Made by a program: the position numbers and the translations under genes. Source: Balneolaceae bacterium (lineage in GTDB: Bacteria; Bacteroidota; Rhodothermia; Balneolales; Balneolaceae). From it: a stretch of DNA of 64,000 nucleotides. Positions within the stretch are counted from its first letter, which is position 1; each line of letters begins with the position of its first letter. The notes below the pieces were generated by a model. That model was not told the DNA's origin and made no database searches. It was given only the letters and a program-made list of their open reading frames with translations. Location of the stretch: contig VEMX01000028.1 of the NCBI GenBank assembly GCA_009711805.1, positions 59,307-123,306 of the forward strand, written 5' to 3'. This document shows, piece by piece, positions 5,936-45,270 of the stretch.

Positions 5936-8320
5936 ATGATGAAACGTCAGTGGAACAAATCAATACAATATTCAGCCCTGCTAATTATTGCGTTGGCCAT
6001 GATAGCTACAGCATGTACGCAGCAGGAGAATTTCCCCAAAGCCTCCCAAATGGTAGGCCTGGCAACTCCCATTACCCTGGATTACGGGCAAACAAGTATT
6101 TTAACCCAGGATTATTTCATAGATCATACCCGTATAGATTCCGTTACTTCCCCAAAAGGGTTAACAGCTGAGCTAAATGGTGATAAAAGCGAAGTACTTT
6201 TAAAGGGAAATCTTCCACAAAAAATGGGGGTGTTGGCATACTGGCTGAACGGTACAGCCTATCATCAGTTAATTAAGGAATCTGCCAAGCAAGAGCTTAC
6301 CATAACTTTTGATCCCCGGGGAGAAGAATATGAAGTAGTACAGCTGAAAGGAGAAATGAACCGATGGAATCCGTCTTCTACCGTGCTTGAGAAGGAAGGA
6401 GATCTGTGGAAAACTACCATGTTGGTGAACCGGGGAGTGTACCAGTATTTATTTGTAGTGGATGGAAAGGAAATGTTGGATCCATCTAATCCGGAAACTG
6501 TTCCCAACGGGCTTGGTGGTACAAATTCACTATTAAGAGTAGGGAAGCCGCCTGCAGAATTATGGCTTCAAACCCATGAAGAGGATGGAGGAAGCGTATC
6601 TCTGAAATCGGAAGCTGCAGAGAATGTGATGGTATTGTGGCAAAACCATCTGCTTGAACCGAAAGTGGAAAAGGAAATAGCAACAGTTAAAATTCCAGAT
6701 GCGGCCTCTTCTATGGAGCGGTCTTATATCCGGGCCTGGACCTTCGATGAGCAGAGTGTATCTAACGATGTGCTCATTCCTCTGGAGTATGGGGCGATCG
6801 TGAATCAGTCGAATCAACTTAACCGGCACGACCTGGAAAACTGGAACATGTATTTTGTGCTTATTGACCGTTTTAAGGATGGAAATCCATCCAATACAAG
6901 AAAAGTGGATGATCCACAGATTCACCCTAAAGCAAACTATTATGGTGGCGACCTGGAAGGGATCATTCAAACTATAGAAAGCGGATATTTTAAAAACATT
7001 GGCGTAAATAGTTTATGGCTTTCTCCCATTACACAAAATCCTGAAGGAGCTTATGGTCTTTGGGATAAAGGCGGTGTTACCACAACCTTTTCCGGTTATC
7101 ATGGCTACTGGCCCATATCTTCGTCAAAAGTGGACGACAGATTTGGTTCCGGGGAGAAATTCCAGGAATTGCTGGATGTAGCCCACCGCCATGGTATGAA
7201 TGTGATCCTGGATTATGTGGCCAATCATGTGCACGAACTGCATCCGGTATACCAAAAGCATAAAGACTGGGCTACAGATTTGTACCTGCCGGATGGGAGA
7301 TTGAATACCGAACTCTGGGAAGAACAGCGCCTGACCACCTGGTTCGATACTTTTATGCCTACCCTTGATTTTTCCCGTCCCGAGGTTATTGAAACCATGA
7401 GTGACTCAGCGCTTTTTTGGGTCAAAGAGTATGACCTGGATGGTTTTCGACATGATGCCACCAAGCATATTCAGCTCGAATTCTGGAGAACACTGACAAA
7501 AAAAATAAAAGATTCAGTTATAGTTCCTCAAAACAGGAAGGTGTTCCAAATAGGAGAGACTTACGGAAGCCGGGAACTCATAGCCAGCTATATCAATTCC
7601 GGGTTGCTGGATAGCCAGTTCGACTTTAACATTTTTGATGCAAGCGTAAATTCGTTTGGCAAGGGCGTTTCATTTGAAAGCCTTGAAACACAAATGAACG
7701 AAAGCTTTAAATACTATGGGTATCATAATAAAATGGGCTACATATCAGGTAATCATGACAAAACCCGGTTTATTACCCTGACCAGCGGAGAGGTAAGCTG
7801 GGGGGAAGATGGTAAACTGGCCGGCTGGACAAGAGAAATAGAATCACCGCAGGCTTTTGCTTACGATCGTTTGAGTATGCTGCATGCGTTTAATCAAACC
7901 ATTCCCGGTATCCCCGTTACGTATTATGGAGATGAATTTGGAATGTCCGGAGCTAACGATCCGGACAACCGCAGGTGGATGAGGTTTGCCGAAGAGGATC
8001 TTTCTGAGCTTGAACTGAGAAACCGAAATATATTCACCAAACTTGCCAAACTCCGAAATAGTCATATGGCACTGCTATATGGCGATTTCCGGTTTCATAT
8101 TACCGAAGAGAATACCATGGCATATTCCAGGGCATACTTTGGGAATCAAGTGATAGCGGTTTATAATAAATCGAACCGGCAGGAACAGGTTTTAGTATCC
8201 CTGAGAAGAGGTTTTGATTATGCCGAACTTAAAGCTGAGTTTGGTTCTGATTTTGAGATAGAAGACGGAGTGCTAACTATTACACTTCCCGCCAATAGTT
8301 TTGAATTGTTAACTTTATAA
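5936..8320 (+). CDS. GH13 alpha-amylase-family lipoprotein (SusG/cyclomaltodextrinase-like)
   Basis: Lipoprotein signal LLIIALAMIATAC. GH13 regions ILDYVANHV, DGFRHDATKH, FQIGETYG and SGNHDKTRF. Confidence 0.9.
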   Translation: MMKRQWNKSIQYSALLIIALAMIATACTQQENFPKASQMVGLATPITLDYGQTSILTQDYFIDHTRIDSVTSPKGLTAELNGDKSEVLLKGNLPQKMGVLAYWLNGTAYHQLIKESAKQELTITFDPRGEEYEVVQLKGEMNRWNPSSTVLEKEGDLWKTTMLVNRGVYQYLFVVDGKEMLDPSNPETVPNGLGGTNSLLRVGKPPAELWLQTHEEDGGSVSLKSEAAENVMVLWQNHLLEPKVEKEIATVKIPDAASSMERSYIRAWTFDEQSVSNDVLIPLEYGAIVNQSNQLNRHDLENWNMYFVLIDRFKDGNPSNTRKVDDPQIHPKANYYGGDLEGIIQTIESGYFKNIGVNSLWLSPITQNPEGAYGLWDKGGVTTTFSGYHGYWPISSSKVDDRFGSGEKFQELLDVAHRHGMNVILDYVANHVHELHPVYQKHKDWATDLYLPDGRLNTELWEEQRLTTWFDTFMPTLDFSRPEVIETMSDSALFWVKEYDLDGFRHDATKHIQLEFWRTLTKKIKDSVIVPQNRKVFQIGETYGSRELIASYINSGLLDSQFDFNIFDASVNSFGKGVSFESLETQMNESFKYYGYHNKMGYISGNHDKTRFITLTSGEVSWGEDGKLAGWTREIESPQAFAYDRLSMLHAFNQTIPGIPVTYYGDEFGMSGANDPDNRRWMRFAEEDLSELELRNRNIFTKLAKLRNSHMALLYGDFRFHITEENTMAYSRAYFGNQVIAVYNKSNRQEQVLVSLRRGFDYAELKAEFGSDFEIEDGVLTITLPANSFELLTL

Positions 8321-13077: not shown

Positions 13078-13089
13078 AATCGCCCACAT

Positions 13090-13147
13090 GGGCTTGGTTC
13101 TATGTAATGCCCCCCGATACTCGCTGTAAGACTTAAGAGAGCTTTAG
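13090..13147 (+). repeat. Copy 1 of a roughly 58-nt intergenic repeat
   Basis: gggcttggttctatgtaatgccccccgatactcgctgtaagacttaagagagctttag. The last 29 nt (13119-13147) are identical to 13477-13505. Confidence 0.85.
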
Positions 13148-13445
13148 GGTGGTCCACTACCTTAATCAGTATTGATATGGTTAGTTGCTATGAAGGCTGA
13201 GGTTGCCATATACTTTCACCTCACCTAAATCCTCTCCTGGAGGAGAGGACTTGCTGGGTAATCAATAGATTGTTTGCTCACTTTTAAGATTTTGGATTTT
13301 CTGCTTCTAAACTTATTGGAGGGTATGTACAACAATTCTTCCTCCTAAAGCAAGTCAGAGACTTGCGTGGCTACTGTCCTTAAGACAGCCCTCGCAGAAG
13401 AAGCCTAATTCATCGATCAGACCGGGGATCGGTCAGATCGGGTAC

Positions 13446-13505
13446 GGGGTTTGTTCTGTGTAATGAAACCCCGATTACTCGCTGTAAGACTTAAGAGAGC
13501 TTTAG
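13446..13505 (+). repeat. Copy 2 of the roughly 58-nt intergenic repeat
   Basis: ggggtttgttctgtgtaatgaaaccccgattactcgctgtaagacttaagagagctttag. It contains a 7-bp hairpin, ggggttt (13447-13453) with aaacccc (13467-13473). Confidence 0.85.
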
Positions 13506-13536
13506 ATTCAAAAAGTGAGGGGAAAGAATGATTATA

Positions 13537-13683
13537 TCACTGAAACTTTTTTGCCAGGCTATTTCTGAATTCTTTATTTCTGAGAACCTTCAATTCAAAA
13601 GCATTCATACTTTGTTGAATGGTTAAACTTTCTGTGCGATTTAAATCATCCAGGAAATAAGCCATTTCAATATCAGTGCCCGG
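13537..13683 (-). pseudogene. 3'-terminal remnant (about 48 codons) of a serine beta-lactamase-like paralogue
   Basis: Translates to PGTDIEMAYFLDDLNRTESLTIQQSMNAFELKVLRNKEFRNSLAKKFQ*. This aligns with the C-terminus of the intact gene at 14392-15462 (SGTDIEMAYFLDNLSSVENMSIKQSMNSFELEVLSNSSFREKLS...). Homology stops abruptly at about 13683, where repeat A1 starts. The tracked ORF 13537..13857 is a chimera of this remnant and the repeat. Confidence 0.8.
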
Positions 13684-13823
13684 TGAAATCACACTATCAA
13701 ACCAATCTCCCAGCCTTTTTTTAGTCTCTTTTTTTCTCGCAGAGGCCCGCAGATGAACCGCTGAGTTGCGCAGATGGTGCTGGAATACCGAACGGCATGA
13801 GCGTATCAACTTCAATGTGGCAT
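13683..13823 (+). repeat. Repeat A1 (141 nt), member of the ctcgcaga...gatgaaccgctgagttgcgc family
   Basis: Differs at 2 positions by eye from 14164-14304. Core sequence: tttctcgcagaggcccgcagatgaaccgctgagttgcgcagatgg...tggaataccgaacggcatgagcgtatcaacttcaatgtggcat. Confidence 0.9.
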
Positions 13824-14064
13824 CCAGGCAGTATTCATCCATGAAGATCCGGATCAAAAGACCGTAGCATTCAAACGTTCATTAAAAGGGGAAAGCCCGA
13901 TGTATGTTTTGCTGAATCGATCTGGATCTGCTCAGAGTGTTACTATTTATCTGCCTGATGCCAGGCAGGAACTCCTAAATGCCCTTACCGGAGAATCCGT
14001 TGAGCTAAATAACCAAAACCTTACCATAGAACTCCCTCTGATATCGGGTGTTATTTTGCGATGA
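13822..14064 (+). pseudogene. 3'-terminal remnant (about 80 codons) of a GH13 paralogue
   Basis: Translates to IQAVFIHEDPDQKTVAFKRSLKGESPMYVLLNRSGSAQSVTIYLPDARQELLNALTGESVELNNQNLTIELPLISGVILR*. It is colinear with the last roughly 80 aa of the 11245-13077 product (SAEFIYQDAAAKVVAFQRELEGQNPIYVFLNRSADSQFVTIELPVAKDELTNLISGERVQLKEGTLAFEIPSVSGVVLQ*). There is no start codon or upstream part of the gene. Confidence 0.8.
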
Positions 14065-14125
14065 ATTGATGTGGGTATGTGTGTGCACAGGTTAAGGCGA
14101 TATTTATTTTCTTCTCGTTGTGCCC

Positions 14126-14304
14126 CTCCGCGCAACTCCGCGTCTAACTCTGCGAAACTCTGCGTGAAATCACACTATCAAACCAATCTCCCAGCCTTTT
14201 TTTAGTCTCTTTTTTTCTCGCAGAGGCCCGAAGATGAACCGCTGAGTTGCGCAGATGGTACTGGAATACCGAACGGCATGAGCGTATCAACTTCAATGTG
14301 GCAT
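14126..14304 (+). repeat. Repeat A2, with a leader of four degenerate decamers (AACTCYGCG-type) plus the 141-nt unit
   Basis: 14126-14164 reads ctccgcgcaactccgcgtctaactctgcgaaactctgcg. It is followed by 14164-14304, which is nearly identical to A1. Confidence 0.9.
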
Positions 14305-14391
14305 TCCTAAAAACCCAATTATCCGGCCCGTAAACAACCTGACCTCCCTCCGCTAAAAACTTAATTGGGTTAACGTATTAACGCGGGCATG

Positions 14392-15462
14392 TTATTTCCC
14401 CTCAAGCATGGTCGATAGTTTCTCTCTGAACGATGAGTTGCTGAGGACTTCCAGCTCAAAACTGTTCATACTTTGTTTTATCGACATATTTTCCACAGAA
14501 GATAAGTTGTCAAGAAAATAAGCCATTTCAATATCAGTGCCCGATTTGGTAGTGGCATATAACGCCTTGGTAAGAACAAAAGCCGTAGAACCGCCCTTCA
14601 TACCTGAGTGTTCTAACCACTCTTGGTTAGCGGGATTTGTCATAACTACTTCCATAATGGGGTTTAGGGTAGCATGAACTTTCTCCGAAAAGTAGGACCG
14701 GCTGTTAATTTTGTCCATGACGGAGGTATAAGTTGAAGCTGTAGAAGCCGGTAAATGCTCAGACCATATTTTTTGGGCATCCATAGTAAGCGAGCTAAGG
14801 CTAAATTCGTTTTTCATGGAAGTGTCACTTTGAAGAGTATAGAAGACATCAGTACTTTTTTTACGATACTCATTGAGTGATAATTCCGAAGCATCGATGG
14901 TCTCATCATTAAACAGATACAGAGAGGAAATAAAAGGGTAGATGGGTTCATGATTTTTGATATCAAGACTGTCCAATCGGTTATTTACATTCTCTATACC
15001 CAGTTTCATGAGCAGAAACTCCGTATTGGCATTAGAGCTGAACCAGATCATGCCCTTTGCAACATCATGCAGAGTCACTTGTCCGTTGTTTACCAATCCT
15101 TGTTTGGTAATCATATTTAGCCAGGCAGGGTGTGTGCCTCCATCGGTATTGGGAATATAGAATCGCCTCAGTTCAGAAAGCGAGACCCTTTCACCGGGAT
15201 CTATTGTTCCGGCGGCCGCTTGTTCTGCAAACTCAACAGCTATTATGATTTTTACTGTACTTGCAAGAGGCATCATTCGATCCGCATTATAGTTTACCAG
15301 CACAGAATCATCCACAACCAAATGCAAAGATGCTTTCTCAGGATTATTCTTTATAAACTCGGCGATCTGCTTAGGAGAGGAAACGAGGTTTAGGTGAGAG
15401 GTAGTCCCTGTTATCACTATCAGTGTGGTGCAAACAGAAAGGCAAAAGAGAAATCGTTTCAT
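14392..15462 (-). CDS. Serine hydrolase, class A beta-lactamase / penicillin-binding-protein-like
   Basis: Signal peptide. SxxK motif LASTVKI, SxN motif FSSNANTEF, and a KTG-like motif MKGGST. Confidence 0.8.
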   Translation of the reverse strand: MKRFLFCLSVCTTLIVITGTTSHLNLVSSPKQIAEFIKNNPEKASLHLVVDDSVLVNYNADRMMPLASTVKIIIAVEFAEQAAAGTIDPGERVSLSELRRFYIPNTDGGTHPAWLNMITKQGLVNNGQVTLHDVAKGMIWFSSNANTEFLLMKLGIENVNNRLDSLDIKNHEPIYPFISSLYLFNDETIDASELSLNEYRKKSTDVFYTLQSDTSMKNEFSLSSLTMDAQKIWSEHLPASTASTYTSVMDKINSRSYFSEKVHATLNPIMEVVMTNPANQEWLEHSGMKGGSTAFVLTKALYATTKSGTDIEMAYFLDNLSSVENMSIKQSMNSFELEVLSNSSFREKLSTMLEGK

Positions 15463-18256: not shown

Positions 18257-19798
18257 ATGTCAGATAATCAGACCGCCGGAATTACGGCCGGGGACTTAGA
18301 TTCTTTAGAAAAGAAGAAACTCCACGAGCTGCAAACATTTGCAAAATCTTTAGGAATAAAGCGCGTAACAGGAATACGTAAAGCCCAGCTCATCGAAAAT
18401 ATTCGGGAAAAAGCTCAATCTTTAAATGCTGAAAAAAAGCATCGGGAAGAAGAAAACCAGAAGGATGGCAGAAATTCTGCAAACAAAGAAGATGAGATGA
18501 CTTCCTATGGGGGGCAAGACCATATTGTCTCTTATAAAAAGCAGGAAGAAAAGAAAGAGAATAAAAAGAAGAAATCGCACAATCGAAATACTCAGCGTCG
18601 CAAAGGGCATGAGCACAACAAGCTGCCGGAGTCGGAAGCAACTACTCTTGAAGAACGCATTGAAGAGTTAAGACCTGGTTTGGGGCCATACCTTTTTAAT
18701 GAAGGTACGCTTGAAATTTTACCCGATGGTTATGGGTTCCTCCGCTCGGTGAACTACAATTATAAAGCCAGTCCGGATGATATTTATGTATCTCCTTCAC
18801 AAATTAAACGCTTTAGACTAAAGCAGGGCGATTGTGTAATAGGGATTATCCGTCCCCCAAAAGTAGGTGAACGATATTTTGCTTTACTCCGGATTGAAGG
18901 TGTTAATGGGCGTATTCCCCATGACATGGACAATCGCAAAGATTTTGAAGACATGCTCCCCATTCACCCCGACCAGCGATTCCGCCTGGAGCATAAGTCT
19001 ACTGAATACTCTACCCGCCTCATTGATATGTTTGCTCCATTAGGAAAAGGCCAAAGGGGATTGGTAGTGGCACAGCCAAAGACAGGTAAAACCACTATTC
19101 TCCGGAATATTGCCAATGCCGTTTCTGAAAATCATCCTGATACAAAAATTATTATTGTACTGATTGATGAACGCCCGGAAGAGGTTACCGAAATGGAACG
19201 CACAGTTGAAAGTGCTGAAGTAGTTGCCTCAACCTTTGATGAAAAACCAGAAAACCATATTGGCCTTGCAGAGATTGCTTTTGAAAAAGCCAAACGACTG
19301 GTTGAAAGCGGTCATGATGTATTGCTATTGATGGATTCTATTACCCGTTTGGCACGAGCATATAATATCTGTGCATCTAACAAGGGGCGTACCATGACCG
19401 GTGGTGTTGATTCTGAAGCTCTTAAAGCTCCCCGTCAGTTATTCAGTTCTGCTCGTAATATTGAAAACGGTGGTTCGCTTACCATCCTGGCTACAGCCCT
19501 TATCGATACCGGCTCGCGTATGGATGATGTGATTTTTGAAGAATTCAAGGGTACCGGTAATATGGAAATATACCTCGATCGCCGACTCTCGGATCGTCGT
19601 TTATATCCCGCAATCGATATTTTCCGGAGTGGAACACGACGTGAAGAGTTATTGGTTGCCGAGGAAGAACGCGAGAAGATAGTACTACTTCGACGTTACC
19701 TCACCAATATGAATGCGTTTGAAGCCATGGAATTCCTGCTCGACAAAATTAAAGGAACTAAAGACAACGAAGAGTTTCTCATTTCAATGAATAAATAG
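18257..19798 (+). CDS. rho: Transcription termination factor Rho with a K/E/N-rich N-terminal insertion
   Basis: Rho N-terminal helix bundle [14 protein letters not shown]. Charged low-complexity insert of about residues 55-125. CSD-like [14 protein letters not shown]. Walker [20 protein letters not shown]. Confidence 0.95.
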
Positions 19799-19828
19799 GC
19801 GCCAATGTGTACGTGGATGGTGAACTGG

Positions 19829-19980
19829 TCCGCGCGAAACTACTATACCCAAACCAACCTCCCGGCCTTTTTTCCAGTTCCCTTTTCTCGCAGATTCCCG
19901 CTGATGAACCGCTGAGTTGCGCTGATGGTTTTTGGAATACGGACGGCATGAGCTTAAGAACTTAAATCCCCATCATCCGG
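19829..19980 (+). repeat. Repeat B1 (diverged member of the A-repeat family)
   Basis: ...cgaaactactatacccaaaccaacctcccggccttttttccagttcccttttctcgcagattcccgctgatgaaccgctgagttgcgctgatggtttttggaatacggacggcatgagc...atccggcccg. It is colinear with A1/A2. Confidence 0.85.
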
Positions 19981-19983
19981 CCC

Positions 19984-20116
19984 GCTCCGCGTAACTCTGC
20001 GCATAACTCCGCGAAACTCCGCGTGAAACTATTCTACCCAAATCAACCTCCCGGCCTTTTTTCAGTTCCCTTTTCTCGCAGATTCCCGCTGATGAACCGC
20101 TGAGTTGCGCCGATGA
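19984..20116 (+). repeat. Repeat B2 (decamer leader plus core, 3'-truncated)
   Basis: ctccgcgtaactctgcgcataactccgcgaaactccgcgtgaaactattctacccaaatcaacctcccggccttttttcagttcccttttctcgcagattcccgctgatgaaccgctgagttgcgccgatg. Confidence 0.85.
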
Positions 20117-20160
20117 ATTTAGTGAGGATGAAAGAACAGATTATGGAATTTCATCTTTAG

Positions 20161-20259
20161 GCTTTTTCTCTACAGGAAGCCGGAGCTTCTCTCCTAAAGG
20201 ATGACCATATCACAGGTTGTATTAAGAAGCCAGAGTTTCTCATCTCAATGAATAAATAG
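20161..20259 (+). pseudogene. Short diverged duplicate of the rho 3' end
   Basis: Translates to [32 protein letters not shown], compared with the rho C-terminus [27 protein letters not shown]. The last 27 nt (20233-20259) match 19772-19798 at 26 of 27 positions. Confidence 0.65.
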
Positions 20260-44749: not shown

Positions 44750-45270
44750 GGGGGAAAATAAACAAGAAGCGGGATACTGCAATAAAAAAGGCAGTTTTAT
44801 TTTCAGTCAAAGAATTCCCTCAGACCTGGACAGGGATGCTACATAAAGAATCACGAAACAGCTGTGAGATAAAGCAATTGGAATATGTGATAGTATAGTA
44901 AAACCCTCTCCTTGCTGCGATGCAGACATTCAGTAAAAGTTCCACTCGCGAGGAGTCCAAATCTTAAATAAGGTCCGGTACCGCACCGACGCAGCGATCT
45001 CCATAAATATGGTTGGGATATACATCAACGCTGACCACAGTCGTTGCCATAAGCAAGTAGACTGCCACGGGCTGGTTCGCCAAGCTCACACATCCCTCGC
45101 AGATGGGGCTTTATTTTTTTTTCTTTCTCGCCCCAAAAAAGAGTCAGAGATATATTGATAACCAAGGGAGCAATAGCACATATATTAACCTGGATAAGAT
45201 CCCGATAGCCAAACAATTAGATTCATTCCACTAAAATCGGTATTGTTCGCAAAACCTAAATTAATCTAAT

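Follow-up and report, generated by a model that had tools for sequence, protein, structure and literature searches.

Hairpin repeats between genes of a Balneolaceae genome as probable gene-less derivatives of a GxxExxY cassette

RESULTS

Four repeat copies at the amylase-hydrolase and rho loci

The window analyzed here is a 64,000-nt stretch of a Balneolaceae bacterium, positions 59307-123306 of contig VEMX01000028.1 (C2 below) in the 4.08-Mb, 99-contig assembly GCA_009711805.1; coordinates without a contig name refer to this window. Between an amylase gene and a hydrolase gene lie two direct repeats, A1 and A2, and two diverged relatives, B1 and B2, follow rho. As set out below, the four are probably gene-less, internally deleted derivatives of a small cassette made of a long hairpin and a gene of the GxxExxY family.

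A preliminary description of this DNA had presented A1 and A2 as near-identical 141-nt units, and the alignment bears this out: 13683-13823 and 14164-14304 agree at 139 of 141 positions, and identity breaks off sharply at both ends. The two mismatches are at 13750 (C in A1, A in A2) and 13779 (G in A1, A in A2). At both sites A1 matches other copies of the family (the family consensus at 13750 and copy C22_8075 at 13779), and it is A2 that deviates. Elsewhere in the genome, the copies closest to A1 are about 92-93% identical, over 85-98 nt only. Although the repeat is real, 141 nt is too small an extent for its unit, as A2 has a left arm that begins at 14124 and a right end near 14353. The parts of the four copies are as follows.

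13683..13823, + strand: A1, a 5'-truncated copy covering model positions 41-168, without a left arm
13686-13733, + strand: A1 spacer
13734-13777, + strand: A1 right arm
13780-13808, + strand: 5' piece of the A1 tail, followed by the start of the gene 3' remnant
14124-14353, + strand: A2, a whole unit with all four parts (left arm, spacer, right arm and tail)
14124..14166, + strand: A2 left arm, 43 nt, with four phased words (CTCCGCG, CTCCGCG, CTCTGCG and CTCTGCG) 10-12 nt apart
14167..14214, + strand: A2 central spacer (the hairpin loop), pyrimidine-rich, CTCCC followed by a T-run
14215..14258, + strand: A2 right arm, TTCTCGCAGAGGCCCGAAGATGAACCGCTGAGTTGCGCAGATGG, with four CGCNGAG/T words complementary to the left arm
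14259..14333, + strand: A2 tail, read as a doubly deleted GxxExxY pseudogene from the match of the tail hidden Markov model (HMM) to the gene unit
14334..14353, + strand: end of the A2 unit, carrying the first word of another left arm (CCTCCCTCCGC)
19827..19982, + strand: B1, with one left-arm word (19827-19840), spacer, right arm (19885-19928) and short tail
19983..20123, + strand: B2, with full left arm (19983-20025), spacer and right arm (20073-20116), without a tail; it adjoins a rho-like remnant

The left arm of A2 is the reverse complement of its right arm. The spacer between them is conserved inside this genome and differs in other genera, while the right arm is the most conserved part of the family, its motif recurring in Rhodohalobacter, Gracilimonas and metagenome-assembled genomes (MAGs). 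The diverged copies that had been noted 3' of rho were recovered by nhmmer as B1 (19829-19960, model positions 36-168, E=9e-34) and B2 (19985-20123, model positions 3-143, E=1e-38). The family HMM detected no more copies within the window, even at E<=50. Two further candidates with motifs resembling CTCGCAGA, at about 45094-45134 (45080-45150) and about 13391 (13380-13420), gave no match to the family HMM at this threshold and were rejected as members.

A dispersed family of palindromic units

Iterated nhmmer searches of the genome gave 95 hits, which collapsed to about 49 copies at 21 intergenic loci on 15 contigs. Because arrays of the repeat interrupt assemblies, this copy number is a lower bound. 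All 21 loci lie between protein-coding genes, and most are adjacent to the 3' end of one gene or more. At about half of the loci, 2-5 units follow one another head to tail, typically every 200-222 nt or so unless a gene or another repeat intervenes. The single orientation noted earlier holds for the four copies in the window and does not extend to the genome, in which arrays occur in every orientation relative to the neighboring genes. The wider family that the preliminary description had proposed is borne out by the 21 loci and by conservation of the core in other genera, so that the unit is neither confined to the loci in the window nor peculiar to this genome, and its reading of the element as REP/MITE-like (repetitive extragenic palindromic, or miniature inverted-repeat transposable element) stands insofar as this is a dispersed intergenic repeat family of that kind.

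Each unit is an imperfect palindrome of about 136 nt followed by a tail of 70-105 nt. The family consensus, of 168 positions, comprises a left arm (CCCTCCGCGAAACTCTGCGCCTTACTCTGCGAAAATCCGCGTG, words 10-12 nt apart), a pyrimidine-rich spacer of about 50-60 nt, a right arm (TTCTCGCAGAGGCCCGCAGATGAACCGCTGAGTTGCGCAGATGG) and the tail; the string singled out earlier as conserved proved to be this right arm, most positions of which show 90% conservation or more over all copies. Each arm holds about four CTCNGCG or CGCNGAG words, spaced about 10.7 nt apart (10, 12 and 10 nt), and all clusters of at least three word motifs in the genome fall inside family copies. Every copy matches the family HMM on both strands, which identifies the unit as a palindrome. 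Folded as RNA, the A2 unit gave −55.9 kcal/mol for the + strand and −67.6 kcal/mol for the − strand, with z about −3 for each.

The tail resembles a GxxExxY gene with two internal deletions

The largest array of the genome (contig C4, 68282-69951) holds two open reading frames (ORFs) of 139 codons on the same strand as the units. These two, at C4 68662-69081 and 69402-69821, are intact GxxExxY genes (TIGR04256, 148 bits with a cut-off of 35; PF13366 PDDEXK_3, 145 bits) and the only ones in this genome. The protein belongs to the PD-(D/E)XK nuclease fold by Pfam assignment, and the D...ExK residues are present. On the element strand the array reads left arm, spacer, right arm, gene, left arm, spacer, right arm, tail and so on, with the gene taking exactly the position of the tail in the unit (hairpin-gene-hairpin).

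An HMM built from 20 array-internal tails was aligned to the gene unit. Tail positions 6-51 matched nt 121-166 (E=3e-7), the codons of GLLESVYEQALAYEL, the motif that names the family, and tail positions 42-84 matched nt 369-427 (E=6e-8), the 3' end of the gene, ...INFNVPSLKNSIIRLANDL (NFNV...). The two alignments are collinear and on the same strand, which indicates that the tail is a GxxExxY gene with two internal deletions. In A2, 14261-14289 derives from codons of the GLLESVYEQALAYE region, and 14290-14333 is the 3' end of the gene, still reading (R)INFNVAFLKTQLSGP followed by a stop, or RINFNVAFLKTQLSGP and the stop for the 3' piece of the tail. The deletions lie at short direct repeats, one between two TGGAAT and one at TTC. 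The preliminary statement that there is no ORF is correct locally; it fails for the family, whose complete form carries the GxxExxY gene and whose deleted remnant forms the tail of A1 and A2.

The deletion junction GCGTAnnA|AyTTCAAT is common to all four length variants of the tail, at at least 10 loci. This shared junction suggests that amplification followed deletion. Blocks of more than one unit are 87-91% identical between distant loci, and adjacent units within one array are about 75-80% identical to each other. On the simplest reading, an already deleted derivative would have multiplied and moved, and gene-less copies now stand to gene-bearing copies at about 47 to 2. Taken as a whole, the identity of the repeats and their descent by internal deletion from a hairpin-plus-GxxExxY cassette are in our judgment likely.

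Two other protein families were considered as partners of the repeat and rejected. The four-helix-bundle family TIGR02436 (the "23S intervening sequence [IVS] protein" type) has nine genes or fragments in the genome (C52, C36, C54, C3, C22:48932 and C39), none of them in a CTCNGCG word cluster, and matches to the Y1 transposase family PF01797, to which REP-associated tyrosine transposases (RAYTs) belong, occur on C36, C29, C83 and C63, none at a family locus.

The arm and gene pair in other genomes

Outside this genus, the right-arm core is present in six genera, which reach into a second family of the order, and there too it forms arrays and adjoins a GxxExxY gene. An exact-pattern scan of species genomes found carriers in Rhodohalobacter, Gracilimonas tropica and several Balneolaceae and Bacteroidota MAGs; the genomes searched included no other species of this genus. 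In a Rhodohalobacter sp. MAG (NZ_JAXHMF010000005.1), a hairpin at 6267-6413, a GxxExxY gene at 6445-6822 and a second hairpin at 6826-6955 follow one another. Its gene product is 88% identical in amino acids to that of the C4 gene, the stop codon abuts the left arm, and the neighboring genes are unlike those of the C4 locus. This cassette is also bracketed by a direct repeat of at least 85 nt, about 93% identical, at about 6070-6160 and about 7015-7100, and the bracketing repeat holds more words of the CGCTGAT/TGCGGAT type.

Across the order, GxxExxY genes occur in 101 of 151 genomes, and inverted arrays of short words flank the gene at 21 of 28 loci fetched from other genomes of the order (z>4 compared to shuffles). 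The words vary among loci (CGCAGAG, CACAGAG, CACAAAG and others), with the paired arms staying complementary in register. Metagenome contigs and MAG A14_bin-1928 carry the same arm family in a permuted, gene-less form, in which the right arm is followed by about 20 nt and then the left arm; this order is the usual one around GxxExxY genes elsewhere.

Gene remnants and 28-nt direct repeats at the two loci of the window

Both loci of the window hold displaced gene ends and 28-nt direct repeats in addition to the hairpin units. The features are as follows.

to 13077: intact glycoside hydrolase family 13 (GH13) amylase gene
13078-13536: spacer built from other dispersed repeats
13537..13682, − strand: hydrolase remnant, the last 48 codons of a beta-lactamase-fold homologue; abuts A1; 67% nucleotide identity to the resident gene
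13655..13682 and 14516..14543: 28-nt direct repeat AAATAAGCCATTTCAATATCAGTGCCCG, matching at 28/28 positions (z=19 compared to shuffles); the intact hydrolase gene contains the second copy
13827..14064, + strand: amylase remnant, the last 78 codons of a GH13 homologue; abuts A1 on the other side; 51% amino acid identity to the resident amylase
14392-15462, − strand: intact hydrolase gene
19771..19798: last 28 nt of rho (AGAGTTTCTCATTTCAATGAATAAATAG), with a 27/28 match at 20232-20259 (z=18); B1 and B2 lie between the two copies
20121..20259, + strand: weakly rho-like remnant, interrupted by one in-frame stop; the second 28-nt copy forms its end; tblastn E=0.002 over 18 amino acids; ratio of nonsynonymous to synonymous substitution rates (dN/dS) 0.46

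The amylase and hydrolase remnants are 63-67% identical in nucleotides to the resident genes. For the amylase remnant, identity at codon positions 1, 2 and 3 was 0.62, 0.77 and 0.40, with dN 0.39, dS 2.3 and dN/dS 0.17; for the hydrolase remnant the corresponding values were 0.67, 0.81 and 0.53, with dN 0.29, dS 1.9 and dN/dS 0.15. Both frames are open and free of indels. This pattern of purifying selection, together with the open frames, suggests that the remnants diverged inside functional genes and were truncated recently, so that their divergence dates neither the rearrangement nor the repeats. The preliminary description had taken the repeats to be far younger than, or homogenized relative to, the DNA around them; as a local pair A1 and A2 are indeed recent, but the divergence of the remnants (dN/dS 0.17 and 0.15) is no measure of the age of the rearrangement. 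Among 150 genomes of the family, no homologue was closer to the amylase remnant than the resident gene.

Where the hydrolase remnant meets A1, 28 of 28 nt match the intact gene, and the rest of the remnant is about 60% identical. The A1 joint consequently comprises two patches that look young, of 28 nt and 141 nt, both copied from less than 900 nt downstream. Because A1 is without a left arm, matches A2 at 139 of 141 positions and abuts both remnants, we read it as a templated fragment of the A2 lineage, that is, as a local fragment at a rearrangement joint of the hydrolase and amylase 3' remnants and not as an independent insertion. Our preferred account is that a single recent episode of replication or repair, with template switches at the palindrome-bearing spacer, probably gave rise to A1; in it, either an older duplicated pair of genes would have lost its inner parts or homologous DNA from a foreign source would have become joined here.

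At rho, the 28-nt stretch is also conserved in the rho genes of 8 other genera, and a metagenome scan for an empty rho site (the core plus downstream sequence) gave no match. Remnants of gene 3' ends and long flanking direct repeats were each considered as a general feature of the family and rejected, since each is seen at only the two window loci of the 21; they are not a general insertion footprint. Both 28-nt direct repeats contain CATTTCAAT, a string also found at the tail deletion junction (A|AyTTCAAT), which may be a coincidence or a preferred site of breakage or joining. In the spacer at 13078-13536, two or more further families of dispersed repeats are represented; their partial copies number in the dozens and occur on many contigs, for example C11, C82, C33, C62 and C29, at 85-99% identity.

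DISCUSSION

A possible mechanism and the points that weigh against it

The complete unit would be a long imperfect hairpin with a small GxxExxY gene. Two internal deletions would have cut the gene to a tail of 70-105 nt, and the deleted form would then have spread between genes to about 20 sites, in many cases forming head-to-tail arrays. The nuclease may be supplied in trans by the two intact genes on C4, the enzyme recognizing either the phased words or the extruded hairpin. Its cuts, if repaired by copying, would spread the unit and tandemize it, and the palindromes may themselves provoke local rearrangements. GxxExxY (PF13366) is a widespread family that is listed as of unknown function (PMC3424549). 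That this very large orphan PD-(D/E)XK family provides the enzymes of an unrecognized class of very small hairpin elements, characterized by recognition of words or cruciforms, break-and-copy propagation, tandem arrays, trans-dependent miniatures and rearrangement hotspots at gene 3' ends, is a tentative proposal, which we hold as possible and no further. In the literature searched, GxxExxY comes up in passing, and we found no paper that describes its link to the repeats or this class of repeat.

Several points weigh against this account. No mobility was observed, there being no genome of the same genus, no metagenome contig and no empty site for comparison. Nineteen of the 21 loci have no significant flanking direct repeat of the kind that a target-site duplication would leave; element boundaries are imprecise, and very short duplications could be missed. 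Gene conversion among copies could mimic the shared deletion junction. A search of Protein Data Bank sequences found no homologue of GxxExxY with a solved structure, and the nuclease activity is a predicted one. The order of parts also differs: the unit here runs left arm, spacer, right arm, gene, whereas most loci of the order and the metagenomic copies run right arm, gene or short loop, left arm, and the unit propagated in this genome appears from this comparison to be a circular permutation of the usual cassette. Finally, the 25 predicted pairs are essentially invariant in the subfamily and none is compensatory, so that selection for pairing is not demonstrated here; the check for compensatory changes that had been proposed earlier hence neither supports nor opposes such selection. 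The central N of the words is often mismatched (C.A, T.T and C.C are common). With its free central base and a spacing of about one helical turn, the arm resembles a series of protein-binding sites, such as transposon ends contain, more than a helix optimized for stability.

Alternative explanations

The hairpins might instead serve mainly as RNA structures used by the host, in the manner of REP, enterobacterial repetitive intergenic consensus (ERIC) or 23S IVS-like sequences, co-transcribed in 3' UTRs and in the stretches separating genes and acting as RNase III substrates, protectors of mRNA 3' ends or terminators, with GxxExxY as a passenger or a past vector. The stems are long, GGTTTTGG follows the right arm in most copies, the copies are all intergenic and mostly adjoin at least one gene 3' end, and the layout is like that of ORF-carrying IVS elements (PMC4990558). 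The helices are poor, however, with 3+3 paired bases per 11-nt word around a free central base, covariation is absent, and orientation relative to neighboring genes is not fixed. A search of the whole window against Rfam at the gathering threshold gave no match, nor did one of 13500-14450 at E<=1, and the scan found no terminator-like sites and no promoter-like sites above chance. We regard such a host role as rather unlikely to be the main explanation; it overlaps with descent from a GxxExxY cassette and does not exclude it. The conserved sequence and stable predicted fold would also suit a small-RNA gene or riboswitch-like element in many tandem copies, as the preliminary description had suggested for a small RNA. 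This suggestion found no support, given the promoter and Rfam results, a unit that is palindromic on both strands and a pseudogene remnant inside it, and we consider it very improbable. If the palindrome reflected dimeric binding of a host protein, nucleoid or regulatory, and not a hairpin, the phased words would be iteron-like sites. Their spacing of 10, 12 and 10 nt does approximate the helical repeat, and CTC-N-GCG is conserved with a free central base while the spacers between words vary. Against this, the words differ among cassettes in the order, yet always accompany a GxxExxY gene or remnant, which argues for a partner encoded by the cassette rather than by the host and leaves the host-protein reading doubtful.

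Other alternatives concern how the window copies came to be where they are. They could be cargo of DNA integrated at short identical cores, att-like or Campbell-type, in which case the 28-nt repeats would be the crossovers and the gene ends would come from a foreign, related donor. Both window loci, but none of the other 19, lie between 28-nt repeats (28/28 and 27/28), the remnants resemble pieces of functional orthologues (dN/dS 0.15-0.17), and CATTTCAAT recurs in both repeats and at the tail deletion junction. No integrase is present, however; the 150 family genomes hold no closer, donor-like homologue of the amylase remnant, for which the resident gene is the best match; the rho repeat lies within a stretch that is conserved across genera anyway; and A1 copies the neighboring A2, which local template switching explains at least equally well. 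Integration of this kind is unlikely in our view. That A1 and A2 are a mere by-product of local duplication, with no wider family or function, is hardly credible: although A1 itself is best read as a local fragment, this idea is refuted by about 49 copies at 21 loci on 15 contigs and by a core conserved in other genera and in metagenomes. A CRISPR array, in which short repeats alternate with unique spacers, was rejected as well, as conservation extends over the full period of about 200-220 nt, both from unit to unit and from locus to locus.

Comparison with known systems

Among described systems, REP elements and their paired form, the REPINs (REP doublets forming hairpins), with RAYT genes offer one comparison (PMC3116915, PMC3337134). 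Like the repeats described here, these are palindromic intergenic repeats in tens of copies, often clustered, and a low-copy gene is flanked by the same repeats, the gene-less copies being thought to be acted on in trans. Unlike them, the present system has a gene of the PD-(D/E)XK fold, GxxExxY, and not a Y1 HUH transposase, and its arms consist of four phased 7-nt words in a 136-nt composite with a 70-105-nt tail, not of a single 20-40-nt REP or an inverted doublet. REPINs are also not gene-derived, whereas the gene-less units here contain a gene remnant, which suggests that they derive from the gene by deletion.

Elements inserted in 23S rRNA genes, the IVSs with a small ORF, such as the Coxiella burnetii IVS with S23p (PMC4990558), are likewise small selfish units in which an ORF of unknown role lies between complementary, stem-forming arms, and ORF-less versions exist in both systems. 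The copies here are intergenic, however, and not in helix 25 or 45 of 23S rRNA, and their ORF is GxxExxY and not the four-helix-bundle S23p. MITEs resemble the gene-less units in being deletion derivatives that keep terminal inverted structures and outnumber the gene-bearing parent. They differ in that the parent gene here encodes a PD-(D/E)XK protein, of predicted activity, and no DDE or other recognized transposase, in that 19 of 21 loci have no target-site duplication, and in that units often form head-to-tail arrays, repeating every 200-220 nt or so. ERIC sequences, also called intergenic repeat units (IRU), and Correia-type elements are like the present repeats in being imperfect palindromes, of about 100-150 nt, that lie in transcribed intergenic regions and vary by internal deletions and insertions. 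Unlike the repeats here, they are not known to have arms of phased words, an associated gene or a gene remnant within the unit. By analogy, then, the system would work most like REPIN-RAYT and be built most like the ORF-bearing 23S IVS, its miniatures relating to their parent as MITEs do, and it fails the defining tests of each. We would describe it, from its sequence features, as a putative selfish hairpin repeat with an associated enzyme.

Implications and further observations

The link drawn here makes a single testable system of two orphan features, the repeats and the GxxExxY family. The gene-less units contain a pseudogene remnant whose junction is shared, and this would amount to proof, at the level of sequence, that long intergenic hairpin repeats can be deleted descendants of a cassette. 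If the proposed mechanism is correct, one side effect would be hotspots of rearrangement, of which both loci of the window may give examples in their 28-nt repeats and displaced gene ends.

In practical terms, the arrays break short-read assemblies. The Logan contig SRR9198946_7411, apparently from the same strain, stops inside the A2 tail (compared with 14275-14520 of the window), and on contig C42 the arrays are interrupted by runs of N. Exact-protein searches for other strains found the hydrolase on this Logan contig only and gave no record of rho.

Some copies depart from the usual architecture. One unit on contig C4 (89937-89989) has a left arm of six words, with TCTTACTCTGCG repeated, which indicates that the number of words per arm varies, apparently by slippage. 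A second repeat, of about 290 nt, alternates with hairpin units at C22 31750-32045 and also occurs at C23 15696-15972, C35 32786-32985 and C5 88160-88321; its last 80 nt or so recur on more than 20 contigs. There it stands in place of the usual tail, giving mosaic arrays like those of bacterial interspersed mosaic elements (BIMEs).

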